The notes below the pieces were generated by a model that searched no databases, was not told where the DNA came from, and saw only the letters and a list, made by a program, of their open reading frames with translations. Of a DNA stretch of 64,000 nucleotides, positions 3,006 through 49,660 are shown in pieces. Within the stretch, counting starts at the first letter, position 1, and every line of letters begins with the position of its first letter. Origin of the DNA: a virus. Its lineage: Duplodnaviria; Caudoviricetes. A program made the position numbers and the translations under genes. Where the stretch lies: positions 96,180 to 160,179 of the IMG/VR virus record IMGVR_UViG_3300028048_001801; one strand, written 5' to 3'.

Positions 3006-3080
3006 TGGCGTTCCATAGGAGAGTTGAACTCCTGTCTTAAGAGTGACAGTCTTGTGTCTTAACCGTTGGACCAATAGAAC
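3006..3080 (-). tRNA. tRNA-Asp(GUC)
   Basis: Cloverleaf, CT-GTC-AC loop, TTCAACT T-loop, GCCA end. Confidence 0.9.
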
Positions 3081-3214: not shown

Positions 3215-3296
3215 TGGTGGAGTAGCAGAGAGTTGAACTCTGGTCTTTCAAGTTCCTTTGACGGCTTTACTTGAAATCGACAGCCGTTTCTACCCC
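3215..3296 (-). ncRNA. tmRNA-like RNA consisting only of the tRNA-like domain
   Basis: GGGGTAG/CTACTCC-ACCA with G3:U70, stemless D-loop ending TCGA, 8-bp helix, GAC, then canonical T-arm. Confidence 0.7.
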
Positions 3297-3300
3297 ATTT

Positions 3301-3376
3301 TGGTGGACCCAACAAGATTCGAACTTGCGACTTCCTGCTTGCAAGGCAGGCTATCTACCAACTGATATATGAGCCC
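3301..3376 (-). tRNA. tRNA-Ala(UGC)
   Basis: Cloverleaf, CT-TGC-AA loop, G3:U70, ACCA. Confidence 0.95.
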
Positions 3377-3755: not shown

Positions 3756-3870
3756 CGGTCGGGACTGCCAGAATCAAACTAGCTTCTTCTGTGGTCGAGT
3801 TGTTCTCTTGGCTATCTTTGAACTATATTGTCTACTCTGTTACAGTGCTCTATCATTGAGCTATGTCCCG
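3756..3870 (-). ncRNA. tRNA-like RNA with about 49-nt insertion replacing the anticodon loop
   Basis: CGGGAC/GTCCCG acceptor, TAGCTCAATGATAGAGC D-arm, GCTAG-TTTGATT-CTGGC T-arm, ends ACCG. Confidence 0.6.
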
Positions 3871-4055: not shown

Positions 4056-4214
4056 TGTAATTGAGAACCCGTACTCCATTACCGCCACGTCTGACTTTAT
4101 TATTCATCATGTCTGGCCTTTTTTATTTCTTCCTATTAAATAAGCGGATGATAAAGGTTTTTCATAATCGTTTCCACGATTTTAGCAAGATTAGGAACTC
4201 TTGCAGTATTCCTA

Positions 4215-4262
4215 CCCGATGGCGGGATTTGAACCCGCAATGACCAGCTTTAATTCATCGGG
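4215..4262 (-). ncRNA. tRNA minihelix-like RNA (acceptor stem plus T-arm only)
   Basis: CCCGATG/CATCGGG stem, GCGGG-TTCAAAT-CCCGC T-arm, only a 17-nt linker; no encoded CCA. Confidence 0.5.
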
Positions 4263-4942: not shown

Positions 4943-5019
4943 AGCCCCTTGCAGGAATCGAACCCGCGTCTTTACTCACGACCATGTCTGTGGTAAATCT
5001 TCCACTGATATAAAGGGGT
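4943..5019 (-). ncRNA. tRNA-like RNA with extended anticodon arm and no 7-nt loop
   Basis: CCCCTT/AAGGGG acceptor, GCGGG-TTCGATT-CCTGC T-arm, anticodon arm TTAC-CAC-A-GAC-ATG-GTC-GTG-A-GTAA. Confidence 0.55.
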
Positions 5020-5558: not shown

Positions 5559-5587
5559 ATTATATATCATATTTATTAATTTGTCAA
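5559..5587 (-). promoter_or_regulatory. sigma70/sigmaA promoter for the ncRNA/tRNA operon
   Basis: Perfect TTGACA-17-TATAAT with A-tract UP element. Confidence 0.85.
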
Positions 5588-5615: not shown

Positions 5616-6464
5616 TTATTTTTTATGAAATAAACTTTTACTTTTGGCTTGTTCAACTATTTTTATAAGTGGTTGATAGAATGAGTAATTTATATATAAA
5701 TCAAAATAACCGACAATTCTACAATTTGGATCCCATGGACGCTGCCAGCTAAAATGTATTAGTCTGCAATTGCGCAAAGCGTTATCAAAACAATGACTCC
5801 CCCACAATTCATATGGTTGGAAATTGTAAATGAAACCATTTATTTTTGTAATCGGAATCTTGTCGATATATAAATTAAGAAAATCTTGATCTAAATATTT
5901 AAGTTTTGGCAAGTTGGAAAAGAAAATATCTTCAAAATCTTCCATAGAATAAGTTTGCCTAAATGTATCTAAGTTAAATTTTACTACACCCGCATTGCAA
6001 TAAATGTTTAGTGACCCCGATCTTGCGTCGCAACACCCATCAAGTTCATTGGCCATAACAAAAGGCGCTTTTAAGTTGAATAATGGTGTTAAGTCGCCCT
6101 TGCATAATATATCGGCGTCCAAATAAATAACCTCTTTTATATCATCCTCGTCTATTAACCATGGCGCAAAAACCCTAAAACACGTTGCATCGTGCCACCT
6201 ATGATGAGAAAGAGTGAAATTCATTTTATATTCATAAAGCATTATACCAAGAGCATATTTTTCATTAAATAATTCTCTGATGATATCTTCACCAAGTTTC
6301 TCACAGATGCATATAAAAGAAACGTTTTTGTTGCTTGCTTTTACAGACATCATAAGATTTATCGCTTGCATGTAATAACCGTTGTCAAAGGTTAACAAAA
6401 TGATATTATCTGAAATTTTAAAAAATTTAGTTGTTTTCTTAGACAATAATATAAAATTATTCAT
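5616..6464 (-). CDS. Glycosyltransferase family 8
   Basis: YLDADIL (DxD), NAGV, DQD, IHF..RPW motifs; start moved to ATG 6464. Confidence 0.85.
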   Translation of the reverse strand: MNNFILLSKKTTKFFKISDNIILLTFDNGYYMQAINLMMSVKASNKNVSFICICEKLGEDIIRELFNEKYALGIMLYEYKMNFTLSHHRWHDATCFRVFAPWLIDEDDIKEVIYLDADILCKGDLTPLFNLKAPFVMANELDGCCDARSGSLNIYCNAGVVKFNLDTFRQTYSMEDFEDIFFSNLPKLKYLDQDFLNLYIDKIPITKINGFIYNFQPYELWGSHCFDNALRNCRLIHFSWQRPWDPNCRIVGYFDLYINYSFYQPLIKIVEQAKSKSLFHKK

Positions 6465-7266
6465 TTCTATTGCCGAACTCTTGTATATATTTAAGTTTTT
6501 CTGGAGTTTTTTCATTTAGTTGCCAATAATAATCAAAATCCAAAACACGCTTATCAAACATAGCATCCCCTCTATTTAATTTTTGTTTAATGAATTCTTC
6601 AAGGGTCTTTGTCATATAATGGTTGATGAAAGCATTGTTTGAAAAATTGCCAAACTTATCTGTTGCGGTTATTTCACCTCGACACTCTATACCGTCCGCT
6701 GTTACTTGGCCAATGTGCATACCATTTATACGACAGCTATGCGTGTCAATATAAACATTTGATAACTTCCCTCTTGTTATTTGTTTGCCTTCTGTGAATA
6801 ATTCTATATTCTTTTTTATAATTTGTTTTTTAAAAAAAATATGAACAGGAACCCGCGTATCTCTTGTTATAAAACCGTCGTCCCCATACATATGCCAATG
6901 TAATTTAATGCTTGTCGCTTTTTGAAAAATTGGGCTCAATAACATTTCTGTAATATTTTGCCATTTGTTTAAAACAATATATTCGTCTATATCTATAAAC
7001 GCGCACCAATCAAATGTTTGATTATATTTTGCATAAAAAACATTATAACACTCTGGTTGAAAGAAATATTTTTTTATTCCACGAACGTCAAAAATTGTTA
7101 TTCGATCCATATATTGTGGTAAAATTATATTACCTATAAACACAGAACCGACATCATCATTATCAAATAAATAAATATGATTGAAACCGATATTAAAATG
7201 ATATTGGATCCATTCGTTTATGTATAAGTGTTCATTTTTTGCGATTGCGCAAATAACATTATTCAT
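6457..7266 (-). CDS. GT-A glycosyltransferase (GT92/GT2-like)
   Basis: CAIAKNE..YINEWIQYH..GF, FIDIDEYI, INHYMTKT motifs. Confidence 0.85.
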   Translation of the reverse strand: MNNVICAIAKNEHLYINEWIQYHFNIGFNHIYLFDNDDVGSVFIGNIILPQYMDRITIFDVRGIKKYFFQPECYNVFYAKYNQTFDWCAFIDIDEYIVLNKWQNITEMLLSPIFQKATSIKLHWHMYGDDGFITRDTRVPVHIFFKKQIIKKNIELFTEGKQITRGKLSNVYIDTHSCRINGMHIGQVTADGIECRGEITATDKFGNFSNNAFINHYMTKTLEEFIKQKLNRGDAMFDKRVLDFDYYWQLNEKTPEKLKYIQEFGNRNE

Positions 7267-7999
7267 GCTCGGCCCTTTGTGGCAAATCGCCATGCTCAAA
7301 AATAAATTTCTCTAAGTTTATTGTGTTTTGTCTTAATAAATCCCAGCGGTATTGTTTTCTTCTAGACCACGTCGATGGTATGTTCGGGTCGTGAAAGTGC
7401 GTGGTAGTTAAACTATTTGGAATATCGAATTCAAAATCCTTATATTTAACATACAGCAACATTGAAAATATCCTATCTTCAAAACCGACGCTTTGCTCAG
7501 GGTCAATGTTGGGAAAATCTGTTTCTTCCAATATTTTTCTCGAAATAGCACACAAATTGAGGCATGAGTCTTTATATGGGTTTAAAGAACCTCTTTTTGC
7601 ATCATCGCTATCCCCCTTTAAAAAAGCAAAACCGTTGGGATTTTTGTCGATTTTAGACAAATATTCTTCTATACCAACATCGTTAGAACAAGATATGACA
7701 CAATCGTCATCAAACATAAGTATATAGTCTGCATCCGTTTCTGTTAAAAATTTTTCTCTTAAAATTTTACGAGCTTTTAATATACCAAGTCTTTCGGTAT
7801 ATTTGTAAATTTTGGCCTCGTTTAAGATATTTGGAACGTCGGTCTTCCAATTTTGCGCCACAATGACCAACGGTATATCAGGAAAATATTGATTAAGTTG
7901 TCTTAAAAGTTTGTTAAATGCTCTGATTCTTATCATTCTTGGCCCTACGTCATCTGGAAACCAACTAACAATACCAATAATTTTTTTTAGCTTTTCCAT
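7259..7999 (-). CDS. GT-A (GT2-like) glycosyltransferase
   Basis: YILMFDDD (DxD) and GFED motifs. Confidence 0.75.
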   Translation of the reverse strand: MEKLKKIIGIVSWFPDDVGPRMIRIRAFNKLLRQLNQYFPDIPLVIVAQNWKTDVPNILNEAKIYKYTERLGILKARKILREKFLTETDADYILMFDDDCVISCSNDVGIEEYLSKIDKNPNGFAFLKGDSDDAKRGSLNPYKDSCLNLCAISRKILEETDFPNIDPEQSVGFEDRIFSMLLYVKYKDFEFDIPNSLTTTHFHDPNIPSTWSRRKQYRWDLLRQNTINLEKFIFEHGDLPQRAEHE

Positions 8000-9582
8000 T
8001 ATCTTACCCTCCCTTTATACCATTTTTCCCATTCATGTGTGTCCTTTTGATATCCTGGCAAACCTCTTTCTTTCCAGTGTTCCCAGGTAACACTGCCAAC
8101 CCTTGGCATATTATAATAATAAACAATTTCTTCCGAACGAACTTCGTCAAGCGTACCACCCTTACTCTCTTTTAATCTTTTCTTAAAATCGGTGTCCTCA
8201 AAACAACGGCGCATGGGGTCGTGTCTAACAGATCCTATATAATCCAATCTTACAAAGCAACCTCTGAGTATTGTTTCGGGATGCGTGGAAAACCCATCGT
8301 TTCTTGTGTATTTGGGTATAAGTATATTTTGATCTTTAAGTTCGTTATCAAGGATTTTGCAAAAAACCTGAGTGTCTATCTTATCATCTGCATCGAGGAA
8401 GAAGATATAATCTCCGTTAGCAATATCTAAAAGAACATTTCTACCATATCCAACGCCCGCATTCCGAGACACGGAAAGAATATCGCATTTAGCCAGCTTA
8501 AAGTCGCTAAGTTTATTTTGCGCTCGTTCGATAGATTTGTCGGTAGATTTATCGTCTAATATCAAAATCTCTATATCTTTCCTATCTGGAATGGAGCCGA
8601 GACACGTCTCGATATAATCTTCCATATTGTACATACAGATTCCTATCGTAACCTTCGGTTTCTTTTCAAACTTAGACATCTTAAAATATCTTGATTCAAA
8701 AGCCCGTCTAACAGCATTATTTTCGCTCCACGTCTTTACATTAGTACGCTCGTTGTCGTTTAAAATCAGCGTGTTTTCAGGACTTGACAAAATAATTTGA
8801 GCGACGGAGTCGATATTGTTTTCCATATTCATGTATGCATAAGTTCGCGTCGGCTCTGTCACATTTTTTATGCAGAATTCGTAATATGGATAAATATATT
8901 GATTATGATTATTTGGAGCCCTAAATGGAGTAATGTTTTTATAAATCTTATCCCCCAACAATTCGTTAACTTTTGTTATATGACTTTTGATCATCGGAGT
9001 AAACTCATGATAAGGAGTTATATAGTTGGGTGTAGAATCACGGCCGTTCACAGCAAGCTGGACATCGTTAAAACAACGACAACAAACAATGTGGAACTGT
9101 AAATAATCTTGTAACACCCTTTGTCTGAAGCCTATCTTGAGTTTCCCGTCTTCGCTGAAAAAATCCTCTGCCTTCAGCGGTTTTAAGACATAATAATCAT
9201 CGTTTGCATAAATGAAATGTTCGGAAAGATTTGGGATTTTATCTAAGAACATTTCAATAGTGGTCGAATTATAGGTTGGAAGGTATTGTTCTGGAATGAA
9301 ATCTTTGTGATAAACCACTTGAACTTTATTCGTATCCAACCACTCTGGAATTTGATCTTCTGCCTGAAGAATTATATAAAATTTATTTATAAAAGGCATA
9401 TATGCCTCAAGGCCTCTAAGCATATATCTTAGAAAACCCCAGTCTCTATACCTTTCACTATTAAAATTATTTAATCTTTGTTCATCGCCATTTGAACGAC
9501 AAAAATCAACATATGTTTTTTGCCACTTTTTGCTTGTACTATTCACATATGGGAACACAAAATCTATTGGGTAATCTATCAT
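7999..9582 (-). CDS. Stealth-family sugar-1-phosphate transferase fused to a C-terminal GT2 domain
   Basis: IDFVFPYVN (CR1), PTYNSTTIE..FIYANDD (CR2), LND (CR4); then YNMEDYI..DDKSTD..FFLDADD GT2 motifs. Confidence 0.85.
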   Translation of the reverse strand: MIDYPIDFVFPYVNSTSKKWQKTYVDFCRSNGDEQRLNNFNSERYRDWGFLRYMLRGLEAYMPFINKFYIILQAEDQIPEWLDTNKVQVVYHKDFIPEQYLPTYNSTTIEMFLDKIPNLSEHFIYANDDYYVLKPLKAEDFFSEDGKLKIGFRQRVLQDYLQFHIVCCRCFNDVQLAVNGRDSTPNYITPYHEFTPMIKSHITKVNELLGDKIYKNITPFRAPNNHNQYIYPYYEFCIKNVTEPTRTYAYMNMENNIDSVAQIILSSPENTLILNDNERTNVKTWSENNAVRRAFESRYFKMSKFEKKPKVTIGICMYNMEDYIETCLGSIPDRKDIEILILDDKSTDKSIERAQNKLSDFKLAKCDILSVSRNAGVGYGRNVLLDIANGDYIFFLDADDKIDTQVFCKILDNELKDQNILIPKYTRNDGFSTHPETILRGCFVRLDYIGSVRHDPMRRCFEDTDFKKRLKESKGGTLDEVRSEEIVYYYNMPRVGSVTWEHWKERGLPGYQKDTHEWEKWYKGRVR

Positions 9583-10529
9583 TTGACACCGTCCATTATT
9601 TCGTATATAGATTTATTTGGATAAATTTTTAATAAGTTTTTCTTCATAAAGGTTGATATAAAACGCAGATCGGAAGACGTTGTCTTCTCAGTATCGTTAA
9701 TAACAACCTCTTGGTTTTTGGCGCTAATCAAAGCGTCTATTATTCTATTTATACGTTTTCGTTCTATTGCTAAATAACTTACTGTTCTTTGAGATTCCTC
9801 AAATTTATCTGTTAAATAAGCGTATTCAGAATATATATATTGATTATAATTTGAATTTGTTCTAAAATTTGTAATGTTCGGCTCTATGTCTTCCCACAAG
9901 AATTTTCTTGCTTTCACAGCCAGTTGTTTATTCACTGGTGTGAATCCATGTATTGGAACTATAAAACCACCATTTTCCAATGGGGTTAACTCTAATTTTG
10001 TTACAAGTTGATTATATAAATTGTGACATACGCTCCAATATTGAGAGTTATCTCTGGTGGCGTTCCACGTGTTCATTGAAAGTTTTGGCAAGCCTTTATT
10101 TGTAAAATAATCCTCGGGAGTAACATCAGCTCCGAAGTACATGTCATCGTTTCCATATATAAAATGGTCAGACAATCCTGGAATATCTGGAAGAAACATC
10201 TCTATGGTACATGAGTTATATGTGGGCAAGTATTCTTGCGGAATAAAATCTTCGTGTAAAATTATTTTAACTTTTGTTTTATCCAACCACTTTGGAACCT
10301 GTTCTTTATTCGAAACTATTAAAAAAATATTGTTTATAAATGGAGCATGTTTTTCAATGCTTCTGAATACAAACGGTAAACAACCGTTATCTCGGTATCT
10401 TTCACCGTCTATATTGTCTATCCGTCCGCGTTGTTTTGTTTGAATACAATATTTTTCATAGTTTTGCCTCCAGATTTGATCGAAGTTGTTTACGTATGGA
10501 AAAACATAGTCTATCGGGAAATTTATCAT
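9579..10529 (-). CDS. Stealth-family (capsular polymer phosphotransferase-like) protein
   Basis: IDYVFPYVN, PTYNSCTIE..FIYGNDD, IND, PNKSIYE motifs; paralog of the adjacent gene. Confidence 0.85.
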   Translation of the reverse strand: MINFPIDYVFPYVNNFDQIWRQNYEKYCIQTKQRGRIDNIDGERYRDNGCLPFVFRSIEKHAPFINNIFLIVSNKEQVPKWLDKTKVKIILHEDFIPQEYLPTYNSCTIEMFLPDIPGLSDHFIYGNDDMYFGADVTPEDYFTNKGLPKLSMNTWNATRDNSQYWSVCHNLYNQLVTKLELTPLENGGFIVPIHGFTPVNKQLAVKARKFLWEDIEPNITNFRTNSNYNQYIYSEYAYLTDKFEESQRTVSYLAIERKRINRIIDALISAKNQEVVINDTEKTTSSDLRFISTFMKKNLLKIYPNKSIYEIMDGVK

Positions 10530-16072: not shown

Positions 16073-16330
16073 TTACTTATCATTCCCTTTTTTGTTGTTG
16101 TATATGGCATAAGCAGATTTTGAATCCGCTCTGCCTTCGTTGTATTCTTCTTCCGTTATTACAATGGCTTTGGTTATTGCATTTTGTTTATTATGTTTAA
16201 CACACGGCATATTTTTAGCTTGTTTTATAGCGGTTAACATATCTTTCGCCTTAATATAGAAAACAAGCTCAACTTCATTACCAGAACCGACATGACCGCC
16301 GCGGGCATACACTTTATAATAACGTTTCAT
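16073..16330 (-). CDS. Hypothetical protein
   Basis: 85 aa, coupled to both neighbours. Confidence 0.7.
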   Translation of the reverse strand: MKRYYKVYARGGHVGSGNEVELVFYIKAKDMLTAIKQAKNMPCVKHNKQNAITKAIVITEEEYNEGRADSKSAYAIYNNKKGNDK

Positions 16331-17468
16331 CTTTTATTAATCCTGCGGTTCTTAAATGCTTCTTAATGTCACCATACAAATGTATATCTCTCATGACATA
16401 TTCTTTTGGCGAATAAATAACAGGTCTTACCCCCGTTAAATAATCGTAAAGCTTGCATAAATAGTTGCCCGAATATTGGTCTTTCACCTGTGAATAAAAT
16501 GCCGATTTTATTGGCACATTTTGACCACTTTTGATGATTTTTTCCCAATATTCCGCATCTTTTTTGACCACTTTGACCCTTTCGGATACGAAATCTTCCA
16601 TTTCGCGTATAATTTTAGCGTATTTAGGGTAATATGCTAAAAATTCTTCATAATCTCCCGAAAAGAAGATGCTAATAAGCTTAGAGAGAGCTAACGTGTC
16701 ATTAAAATAATGCGAAGTTGCCACATAATAGGGTGACTTAATTTTAACACGATTATAATTCCCGTCCACGGCCACAAACCCCTCTTGTTCATCTTTAAAC
16801 CGAGAAGCGACGGCAACGACATCGTCGAGAGTTTGGAACTCCCACTCTTCAGGCTTTTGTATTCCTATATCTATATTAAACTCTTGGCCCGTAATGTTGC
16901 TACGGGTTCCGATGTGCCATATAGCAGACTTGTTGTATTTAATTACTTGCTCGTTATATGGAGTAGTAAGTTCAAATATATAAGTGTTATTCTTATCAAG
17001 AAGATCGAAATTTAAAGACTGGTTTTTAGCACATTGATAAAACAGGTCTCCAAACGTTGTTGCCACAGTGTTGTTTTCTGGGTGCGCCGAAACCGCCATA
17101 ACCTCAAAAGCGTTTATCATGCCATTAGTGGCAACTCGCCACTGTTTGTTATAATAATAACATTTAAGAATTGATCCGTCTACCTTTGTTTGGATACGTG
17201 TTGTTCCCCAGTTTATTTTTGCCGCATGAAGTTCACCGTAATTGAAAAACTTATCAAACCCGCGACACACGATTTTCCAAGAACCCTCTTCGAGTATAAT
17301 CCCTCTGCACTCTTGGACCATGGGATCCCCAAGATCGCTATTCCACAGCTGATAATTGAAGATCACGAGCCCGTCTTCATGCTTTATTGTAAGATTGTAC
17401 GGGTCGTGTTTTAATAACATCTCCCACTCAATGGGATTCTTTTTAATAAACTCTTGCAGTTTTGTCAT
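16314..17468 (-). CDS. T4 Rnl1-like RNA ligase
   Basis: ECRGIIL, FDKFFN, KVDGS (motif I), FEL, EGFV, RVKIKS. Confidence 0.9.
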   Translation of the reverse strand: MTKLQEFIKKNPIEWEMLLKHDPYNLTIKHEDGLVIFNYQLWNSDLGDPMVQECRGIILEEGSWKIVCRGFDKFFNYGELHAAKINWGTTRIQTKVDGSILKCYYYNKQWRVATNGMINAFEVMAVSAHPENNTVATTFGDLFYQCAKNQSLNFDLLDKNNTYIFELTTPYNEQVIKYNKSAIWHIGTRSNITGQEFNIDIGIQKPEEWEFQTLDDVVAVASRFKDEQEGFVAVDGNYNRVKIKSPYYVATSHYFNDTLALSKLISIFFSGDYEEFLAYYPKYAKIIREMEDFVSERVKVVKKDAEYWEKIIKSGQNVPIKSAFYSQVKDQYSGNYLCKLYDYLTGVRPVIYSPKEYVMRDIHLYGDIKKHLRTAGLIKDETLL

Positions 17469-28144: not shown

Positions 28145-28627
28145 TCAGTTTTTTTCATATAATAAAAACGGTCTATAACCGATGCGCTCTACGCAGAGAC
28201 ATTTGCTGGTAGCGTTGTCTACATAACGCTCGTCATTATGCACATGACCGTAGTAATTCATGTACGGCGTGGTTTGGCTCAATATTAACGGTGCATGACT
28301 CAGTAGATAAAACCCGTCATACAGTATGGGAAATCTGCTCACGGTATGGAATCCCATATCTCTATAAGTTTGTTCGGACCAATTATCATGATTTCCCATT
28401 ATTAAAATCTTTTTCCCATTTAGTCTTCTCGCAATGTTTGAAATATACTCTTTATTGCCAAGCCCAAAATCGCCAAGATGAAGAACCACGTCTTTGTTTG
28501 ATACGGTTTCGTTCCAAAGCTTAATCATAGCTTCGTCCATTTCTTCGACACTTGCAAAAGGTCTATTACAATATTTAATTATATTTGCATGCCCAAAGTG
28601 GGTGTCGCTAATTCCAAATATTTTCAT
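28145..28627 (-). CDS. Calcineurin-like phosphoesterase
   Basis: SDTHFGH, HLGD, GNHD, SHAP, GHVH. Confidence 0.9.
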   Translation of the reverse strand: MKIFGISDTHFGHANIIKYCNRPFASVEEMDEAMIKLWNETVSNKDVVLHLGDFGLGNKEYISNIARRLNGKKILIMGNHDNWSEQTYRDMGFHTVSRFPILYDGFYLLSHAPLILSQTTPYMNYYGHVHNDERYVDNATSKCLCVERIGYRPFLLYEKN

Positions 28628-49508: not shown

Positions 49509-49583
49509 TGGTGGGAAAGCAGGAAGTTGAATCCTGTCTTAGAGAGCCACAATCTCTCGTGCTACCGTTACACTACATTCCCC
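49509..49583 (-). tRNA. tRNA-His(GUG)
   Basis: AGAGA-TT-GTG-GC-TCTCT arm, encoded G-1, A73, CCA. Confidence 0.85.
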
Positions 49584-49586
49584 ATA

Positions 49587-49660
49587 TGGCAGGCGGTAGT
49601 TGTTCTGCCCAACCGTACTCGGAGTCAAAGTCCGATGCACTACTATTGTGCTAACCGCCT
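49587..49660 (-). tRNA. tRNA-Gln(UUG), atypical T-loop
   Basis: TCGGA-CT-TTG-AC-TCCGA arm, AGGCGGT/ACCGCCT stem, GCCA end; T-loop GGCAGAA. Confidence 0.8.

Follow-up and report, generated by a model that had tools for sequence, protein, structure and literature searches.

The Locus and Its Phage

The window, i.e., the whole 64,000-nt stretch of DNA analysed here, represents the final 64 kb of an IMG/VR record of 160,179 bp that is rated complete by CheckV and has a GC content of about 36%. On its minus strand, positions 3215–3296 contain an 82-nt gene for a tmRNA that is reduced to its tRNA-like domain (TLD), in the following called mini-tmRNA. The gene is part of a same-strand array consisting of tRNA-Pro, tRNA-Ala, mini-tmRNA and tRNA-Asp. 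The tRNA-Ala(UGC) gene (3301–3376, minus strand), recognised by both ARAGORN and Rfam, ends with its CCA 4 nt (AAAU) upstream of the mini-tmRNA, and this short gap implies co-transcription and processing by RNase P. The next gene downstream, identified by the same two tools, encodes tRNA-Asp(GUC) (3006–3080, minus strand). A candidate promoter, TTGACA-17-TATAAT (5559–5587, minus strand), agrees with the sigma-70 consensus at 12 of 12 positions, which is a consensus match only. It heads an RNA-gene stretch of approximately 2.5 kb with four called tRNAs, the mini-tmRNA and two odd tRNA-like elements, in which no convincing protein gene was seen; a third odd element is located just outside this stretch.

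The odd elements are all encoded on the minus strand. A tRNA-like gene at 3759–3870 scores 32.3 bits with the tRNA model RF00005, above the cut-off, and carries an insert of about 49 nt in the anticodon region; uncalled by ARAGORN at default settings, it could be an intron-containing tRNA or a non-decoding mimic. The degenerate element at 4943–5019 (RF00005 27.7 bits, below the cut-off) has a C1-G72 acceptor (CCCCUU/AAGGGG) and a good T arm, and lacks CCA. ARAGORN at relaxed settings reads it as a tRNA-Cys with the unnatural anticodon ACA, and its matches to the tmRNA model (13.6 bits) and to the family model R1 described below (18.6 bits) are weak and partial. The 49-nt 'minihelix' at 4214–4262 (RF00005 24.9 bits) consists of a 7-bp acceptor (CCCGAUG/CAUCGGG) and a canonical T arm, with 17 unstructured nucleotides replacing the D and anticodon arms, a U as discriminator and no CCA. 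At 2775–2853, a cloverleaf-like element with a perfect 7-bp acceptor (GCCCCUG/CAGGGGC), a UCCA end and an atypical T loop is called by ARAGORN only at relaxed threshold, as tRNA-Thr(UGU), and lies antisense to a 173-aa ORF without family match. In a different part of the window, a second tRNA (49590–49660, minus strand; RF00005 46.7 bits) adjoins tRNA-His (49509–49582) and is unreported by ARAGORN. The segment immediately upstream of the RNA-gene region (5616–10529, minus strand) encodes glycosyltransferases (GT8, GT2) and two proteins with a Stealth CR2 domain, a sugar-modification cluster that is unusual for a phage.

The DNA polymerase III alpha subunit of the phage shares 38–44% identity with its counterparts in a human-gut phage contig and in large siphoviruses of Bacillus and Geobacillus, and these relatives make a Bacillota host likely. 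The five cultured or deposited phages with the most closely related DNA polymerase (Tsamsa, Thrax2, pW2, Geobacillus E3 and MT835469) contain no mini-tmRNA, as their best R1 scores of at most 37.6 bits are at the level of tRNAs. Thus, the mini-tmRNA is not essential to this phage lineage. It was likewise not found in distant relatives that share the neighbouring 130-aa protein (36–46% identity). The phage itself encodes no SmpB gene, and a search with RF00023 revealed no full-length tmRNA in the whole phage. It does encode a T4 Rnl1-like RNA ligase (window 16314–17468, minus strand; phrog_562, E 7.5e-43). An RNA ligase is also present in Mycobacterium phage DS6A (see Comparison with Known Systems), where it is RtcB-like, and these enzymes may link RNA repair with the manipulation of ribosome rescue.

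Architecture of the Mini-tmRNA

Direct reading of the minus strand at 3215–3296 gives exactly the 82-nt string and the segmentation of the initial annotation, with the parts in standard rather than permuted order; RNA position i corresponds to window position 3297 − i. The acceptor stem (P1) starts with the 5′ strand GGGGUAG (nt 1–7, 3290–3296, with G3 at 3294), which pairs with CUACUCC at 3219–3225. The latter contains U70 at 3221 and is followed by A73 and an encoded CCA (nt 72–82, 3215–3225). The alanine identity elements attributed to it, G3:U70 and A73, are directly legible in the sequence. P1 pairs 5–7 covary and are broken in none of the 89 members of the family alignment (among the matches listed). 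A stemless D-loop, AAACGGCUGUC (nt 8–18, 3279–3289), was also correctly recognised; annotated as ending in UCGA, it comprises 11 nt and corresponds to the tmRNA consensus GG..UUCGA. Its conserved GG is found in 88 of 89 members among the matches listed, and was not imposed by the search pattern.

The D-loop is followed by the GA of the tandem G·A pairs and the 5′ strand of P2a, UUUCAAGU (nt 19–28, 3269–3278; assigned from the RF00023 consensus structure), by the apical module AAAGCCGUCAAAGGA (nt 29–43, 3254–3268) and by the 3′ strand of P2a, ACUUGAAA, which leads into G52 and A53 of the tandem G·A pairs and the linker C54 (nt 44–54, 3243–3253). The 8-bp helix that was proposed to replace the anticodon arm is thus real, and it is capped by 15 nt. 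The GAC that had been described as a linker is present as well, but only C54 serves as such, since the G and A form the tandem G·A pairs with the GA of UCGA. When these are counted, the tmRNA consensus structure gives a helix of 10 stacked pairs. The T arm, CAGAG-UUCAACU-CUCUG (nt 55–71, 3226–3242), has a 5-bp stem and the loop UUCAACU. An architecture pattern with 25 specified bases matches the window once, as compared to 0.00 matches expected from 100 shuffles. The folding energy of the lone sequence is unremarkable (z −1.77), and the support for the structure therefore comes from homology and covariation rather than from thermodynamics.

Matches to RNA Models

The tmRNA model RF00023 aligns with the element end to end (model positions 1–374) at 44 bits, slightly below the gathering score of 47. 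The match has an E value of 1e-15 in a 2.1-kb search and of 1.9e-17 over the whole phage, where it is the best match. The alignment takes in model positions 1–29 and 336–374, and the intervening 306 positions are replaced by 13 nt. Accordingly, the TLD features are in place (acceptor with G3:U70, A73-CCA, T arm, stemless D-loop, tandem G·A pairs and P2a), and the pseudoknots PK1–PK4 are absent. With 15 nt between the two strands of P2a, the mRNA-like domain with its resume codon, tag reading frame and stop codon is missing too.

The initial annotation had named Infernal and ARAGORN as checks on its reading of the element as a tmRNA TLD without mRNA-like domain. Infernal with the tmRNA model recovers both ends of the molecule at the score and E value given above. 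The jakobid mt-tmRNA model RF02544 matches neither the element nor any other part of the phage genome at E ≤ 10, and ARAGORN at default settings calls no tmRNA, tag or tRNA at this position. A 'permuted tmRNA' that ARAGORN reports at relaxed threshold only is spurious, as it runs across two genuine tRNA genes. In a gathering-threshold scan, the element attains the required score for none of the Rfam families, tmRNA being 3 bits short. Homologues folding as ordinary tRNAs would have contradicted the TLD assignment; the element is not among the nine matches that the tRNA model RF00005 finds in the genome at E ≤ 10. The assignment is further supported by the family model, on which the element scores 80.1 bits, by covariation in 89 homologues and by the conservation of an alanine identity that the search had not imposed.

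A Widespread Family in Phages

A scan of IMG/VR with the architecture pattern, which had been checked on the window, identified at least 120 loci. Among the matches listed, 109 of 120 have a perfect 7-bp acceptor even though the pattern imposed 4 pairs; an ordinary tRNA-Ala accounts for a single one of these 109, and loci whose stems are imperfect resemble 3′ fragments of ssrA. Three scans together yielded validated mini-tmRNAs on at least 128 IMG/VR contigs, with at least 105 distinct sequences and, among the matches listed, lengths of 73–90 nt (mode 81–82). Mini-tmRNAs are thus common in uncultivated phages of very different lineages, which span 44–71% GC. BLAST searches of 50,697 phage records with the element and with two members of the family returned nothing useful, because queries of about 80 nt are too short and too diverged.

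RNAalifold recovered P1, a 6-bp P2a and the T arm from 33 sequences, 13 of the 18 pairs showing compensatory changes, and a covariance model (R1) was built from this alignment. Family members score at least 59.5 bits on R1 and ordinary tRNAs at most 41 bits; the window's element reaches 80.1 bits (E about 1e-15). The adjacent tRNA-Ala scores 24 bits, as compared to 80 bits for the mini-tmRNA, and its likeness is limited to generic features. When 89 distinct members among the matches listed were aligned to R1, 95.6% of the cells were in standard pairs (P1 100%, T arm 100%, P2a 96%). Four of the five T-arm pairs and all six innermost P2a pairs covary in these 89 members of the listed matches. 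The covariation score is 0.70, compared with 0.16 after shuffling (reached in 0 of 500 trials) and at most 0.105 with slid partners. Covariation among homologues, which the initial annotation had suggested looking for, is hence found in all three helices, and the structure is under selection.

In a second viral scan, the acceptor stem and the discriminator were left free. It gave a list of 98 distinct sequences with at least six acceptor pairs, 97 of which are family members and one an ordinary tRNA (among the matches listed). All 97 members carry G3:U70 and all 97 carry A73, and pair 4:69 and pairs 5–7 vary (again among the matches listed). A G·U pair can turn into G:C by a single transition, and its unchanged presence is strong evidence for selection for recognition by AlaRS. 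The window's element falls into a minority subgroup in which a U-A pair takes the place of C-G after the tandem G·A pairs. A complete scan places this subgroup on 20 contigs, some of which score too low on R1 to count as mini-tmRNAs. The most similar member among the matches listed resides in a 205-kb contig, where the fetched locus contains 32 tRNAs.

The proximity to tRNA genes is not a constant feature of the family. Among the matches listed, the fetched stretch contains tRNA genes in 33 of 87 distinct loci, all seen on the strand of the mini-tmRNA, and in 18 of the 87 a tRNA lies within 300 nt, at some loci only 1–7 nt away. No tRNA was present in the fetched stretch of the other listed loci (54 of 87), and the mini-tmRNA is thus often the sole tRNA-like gene nearby. 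ARAGORN calls the mini-tmRNA in two and misses it in 85 of these 87 loci (among the matches listed). A shared protein partner was not found when the ORFs within 3 kb of 88 mini-tmRNAs among the matches listed were clustered; the largest cluster covers 11 of these 88 loci and carries no informative annotation.

The Apical Module

The apical module stands in place of the entire mRNA-like domain and the pseudoknots, and probably consists of a purine bulge followed by a 2-bp CC/GG stub with a short closing loop. Its assignment is based on motif enrichment and on the P2a/P2b junction of the tmRNA consensus. Among the matches listed, 63 of 89 members have AA[AG] within the first 6 nt of the cap (18 expected), and 45 of 89 have a purine run followed by CC..GG (1.7 expected). 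In real tmRNAs aligned to RF00023, a GAa bulge directly follows P2a, then P2b starts, and a one-base bulge is present on the return strand. Since the cap motif corresponds to this GAa bulge and the start of P2b, the mini-tmRNA looks like a tmRNA minus everything past the first P2b pairs. The 2-bp apical hairpin of the covariance model is loosely kept, with only 65% of the cells paired (89 members among the matches listed).

Two further proposals for this module were rejected. In the window, the D-loop and the apical loop could form six Watson-Crick pairs (ACGGCU/AGCCGU), as seen in the centroid fold of the lone sequence. A corresponding D-loop/apical pseudoknot does not emerge from the family, in which the complementarity is 373 compared with 367 ± 8.7 after permutation; in 284 of 1000 permutations the complementarity is at least as high as observed. 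It is also unlikely that the conserved UAA at the start of the module acts as a one-codon 'stop-only' frame, because this triplet is enclosed in a hairpin at a distance of 8 nt from P2a and corresponds to the GAa bulge seen in normal tmRNAs.

Cellular Genomes

Running the pattern on 185,579 bacterial and archaeal species genomes gave at least 120 matches. The complementary acceptor stem is missing in 115 of the 120 bacterial-genome matches listed, and three matches that were examined correspond to the last 86–99 nt of full-length tmRNA genes (353–388 nt). A convincing mini-tmRNA (84 nt, perfect acceptor stem) occurs only once among the 120 matches listed, and probably stems from a prophage or from a phage contig binned with the genome. 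The mini-tmRNA family is therefore essentially phage-specific, the bacterial matches among those listed being almost only 3′ ends of full tmRNA genes.

Proposed Function

In tmRNA, G3:U70 and A73 mark the molecule for alanylation, EF-Tu attaches to the acceptor/T stack, and the D-loop, the tandem G·A pairs and P2a constitute the SmpB site; the tag is supplied by the mRNA-like domain. The mini-tmRNA keeps G3:U70, A73-CCA, the 12-bp acceptor/T stack, the D-loop, the tandem G·A pairs and P2a. With moderate confidence, we propose that it is a functional phage gene whose product would compete with the host tmRNA for SmpB and, when charged with alanine, for stalled ribosomes, thereby blocking ssrA tagging. 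Its expression, charging, SmpB binding and effect on trans-translation are inferred from what is established about this process. The RNA would be transcribed together with the neighbouring tRNAs, being made early from the candidate strong promoter, and tRNA-processing enzymes would release it from the transcript. Alanylation by the host AlaRS would then be accompanied by binding of EF-Tu and of host SmpB, on which the mini-tmRNA would have to rely because the phage has no SmpB of its own. Competition with the host tmRNA for SmpB, together with competition of the charged mini-tmRNA for stalled ribosomes, would bring ssrA tagging and the proteolysis triggered by it to a stop during infection.

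The initial annotation had suggested an SmpB decoy or a tag-less rescue RNA. The decoy has indirect experimental support from Mao et al. 2009, who, as cited in PMC4131195 and PMC11915505, observed a strong inhibition of tmRNA in E. coli by a molecule of this kind, which a titration of SmpB may explain. According to the account in PMC4131195, this inhibition is independent of chargeability, yet G3:U70 is strictly conserved in the phage family, which hints at something beyond titration. G3:U70 and A73, unchanged in 97 of 97 members among the matches listed, would be needless for a pure protein sponge, and this suggests that charging is probably part of the function.

The conserved charging elements point to more than a soaking up of SmpB and keep alive the idea of a tag-less rescue, the main rival, even if we consider it rather unlikely. 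The Ala-charged mini-tmRNA, together with host SmpB and EF-Tu, would enter non-stop ribosomes and accept the nascent chain, and the complex would be resolved without a degradation tag, either by drop-off and peptidyl-tRNA hydrolase, by an ArfB-type release or by repeated alanine-adding rounds. If true, ribosomes would keep cycling and truncated phage proteins would be spared when host RNases cut mRNAs. That charging matters is indicated by G3:U70, A73 and CCA, all present in 97 of 97 members among the matches listed without having been imposed, and the location of the mini-tmRNA among tRNA genes that supplement translation fits such a role, as does the presence of RNA repair in both phages (the T4 Rnl1-like ligase here and the RtcB-like ligase in DS6A). 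The same reasoning has been put forward for organellar tmRNAs that are CDS-less and occur together with SmpB (PMC11915505). However, no release mechanism is encoded alongside, as Pth-, ArfB- or RF-like neighbours are not recurrent, and the sole experimental report, as cited in these papers, shows inhibition and not rescue. Tag-less rescue and competition for SmpB and ribosomes are not mutually exclusive.

Binding of a target other than SmpB is improbable. The mini-tmRNA would then mimic a tRNA without an anticodon and sequester a host defence factor that reads the shape of tRNA or tmRNA, for instance a nuclease, RNase R or a sensor for abortive infection. Three more non-canonical tRNA-like elements in or just beyond the 2.5-kb RNA region, namely the tRNA with the insert of about 49 nt, the minihelix and the degenerate tRNA, would suggest a set of such mimics. 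Yet the conserved nucleotides do not reflect a generic tRNA shape; they are those specific for tmRNA (GG..UCGA, the tandem G·A pairs, GAC and the P2a/P2b junction), accompanied by the AlaRS identity set. Moreover, the other mimics do not accompany the family elsewhere, and 54 of 87 loci among the matches listed have no nearby tRNA. A non-functional remnant, i.e., a decayed tRNA-Ala duplicate, the internally deleted pseudogene of a captured tmRNA or an attP-type ssrA fragment, would fit with the position directly after tRNA-Ala, with the missing ARAGORN call and the score below the Rfam gathering score, and with the mere 3′ ssrA fragments that do occur on some viral contigs, but it is very improbable in view of the covariation, as compensatory changes preserve three helices across more than 100 distinct sequences, the 3:70 G·U never turns into G:C (97 members among the matches listed), the acceptor stem has both of its halves, in contrast to att fragments, and beyond generic features there is no likeness to the adjacent tRNA-Ala (24 versus 80 bits on R1).

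Competition for host SmpB and stalled ribosomes is hence the explanation that we prefer. A more far-reaching possibility, which we put forward only tentatively, is that charge-dependent mini-tmRNAs are a widespread phage counter-measure. With host SmpB they would enter ribosomes stalled on mRNAs cut by host defence RNases and add alanine, perhaps in repeated rounds, but no ssrA degron. If so, rescue would be decoupled from proteolysis or re-routed, a so far undescribed hijack of bacterial translation quality control, and the retained G3:U70 wobble and the P2a/P2b junction module would reflect an action on the ribosome and not a simple titration of SmpB. Trans-translation is nearly universal in bacteria and a drug target, yet the ways in which phages handle it have hardly been explored. 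The family is essentially absent from bacterial chromosomes (among the matches listed) and goes largely unseen by ARAGORN and at the Rfam threshold; with a covariance model of its own, phage annotation would gain a gene class that it now misses. An apparent oddity thus turns into the general question of whether it is routine for phages to shut down the ribosome rescue of the host or to re-route it, and whether they do so in dependence on alanine charging.

Comparison with Known Systems

The initial annotation had regarded phage tmRNAs as full length and TLD-only forms as known from organelles. This view is contradicted by a published entry, as Hudson, Lau and Williams list 'Mycobacterium phage DS6A (TLD only)' (PMC4131195), and the 2025 tmRNA database paper, which repeats the statement on inhibition, still has DS6A as its phage example (PMC11915505). 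DS6A is the single phage with a TLD-only tmRNA that is named in the searchable literature, in which no description of the breadth of the family was found. The search of the DS6A genome (JN698994.1) with R1 gave one match (65 bits) at 28478–28560 on the plus strand, between gp33 and gp34, where the GenBank record has no such annotation. Judged by this score, the window's element is a member of the already described DS6A-type family of TLD-only phage tmRNAs.

The DS6A RNA (tmRNA Website tmID 11587, 'Phage__Mycobacterium.9') is 83 nt long, compared with 82 nt here, and both have the same architecture of P1 with G3:U70 and A73, a stemless D-loop ending in UCGA, P2a, an AAAACC-hairpin cap and the T arm. 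Differences are seen in the sequence GCAC, which replaces (G/A)GAC, and at the 3′ end, which is CACUA and not CACCA, so that DS6A has CUA in place of CCA. The genomic settings differ as well. DS6A is a 60-kb temperate actinophage with 69% GC at the locus, and its mini-tmRNA gene stands alone, whereas the window derives from a 160-kb phage of 36% GC that probably infects Bacillota, and its mini-tmRNA, a member of the U-A subgroup, is located inside a tRNA array.

In comparison to canonical tmRNA (RF00023), the mini-tmRNA keeps all strongly conserved nucleotides of the TLD, and its cap corresponds to the P2a/P2b junction. It lacks the resume codon, tag frame, stop codon and pseudoknots of canonical tmRNA and cannot tag proteins. 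Full-length or two-piece tmRNAs of phages, as in the mycobacteriophage Bxz1 group, Bacillus phage G and the Melnitz-type marine myophages (PMC9004378), are also phage-encoded ssrA homologues and often lie near tRNA genes. They keep the tag reading frame and are found by ARAGORN; the mini-tmRNA has no such frame, and ARAGORN misses its family in 85 of 87 loci among the matches listed.

The organellar CDS-less tmRNAs of jakobid and oomycete mitochondria (RF02544) likewise consist of a TLD without a coding part, and also include the Mallomonadaceae plastid forms of about 65 bp (PMC11915505). Both the organellar RNAs and the phage mini-tmRNAs are presumed to depend on an SmpB that is encoded elsewhere. 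The mt-tmRNA model, in contrast, has no detectable match in sequence or structure to the mini-tmRNA (E ≤ 10), and the setting is organelle genome reduction in one case and phage takeover in the other. The organellar and the phage reductions thus look like independent ways to a tmRNA that consists of its tRNA-like domain.
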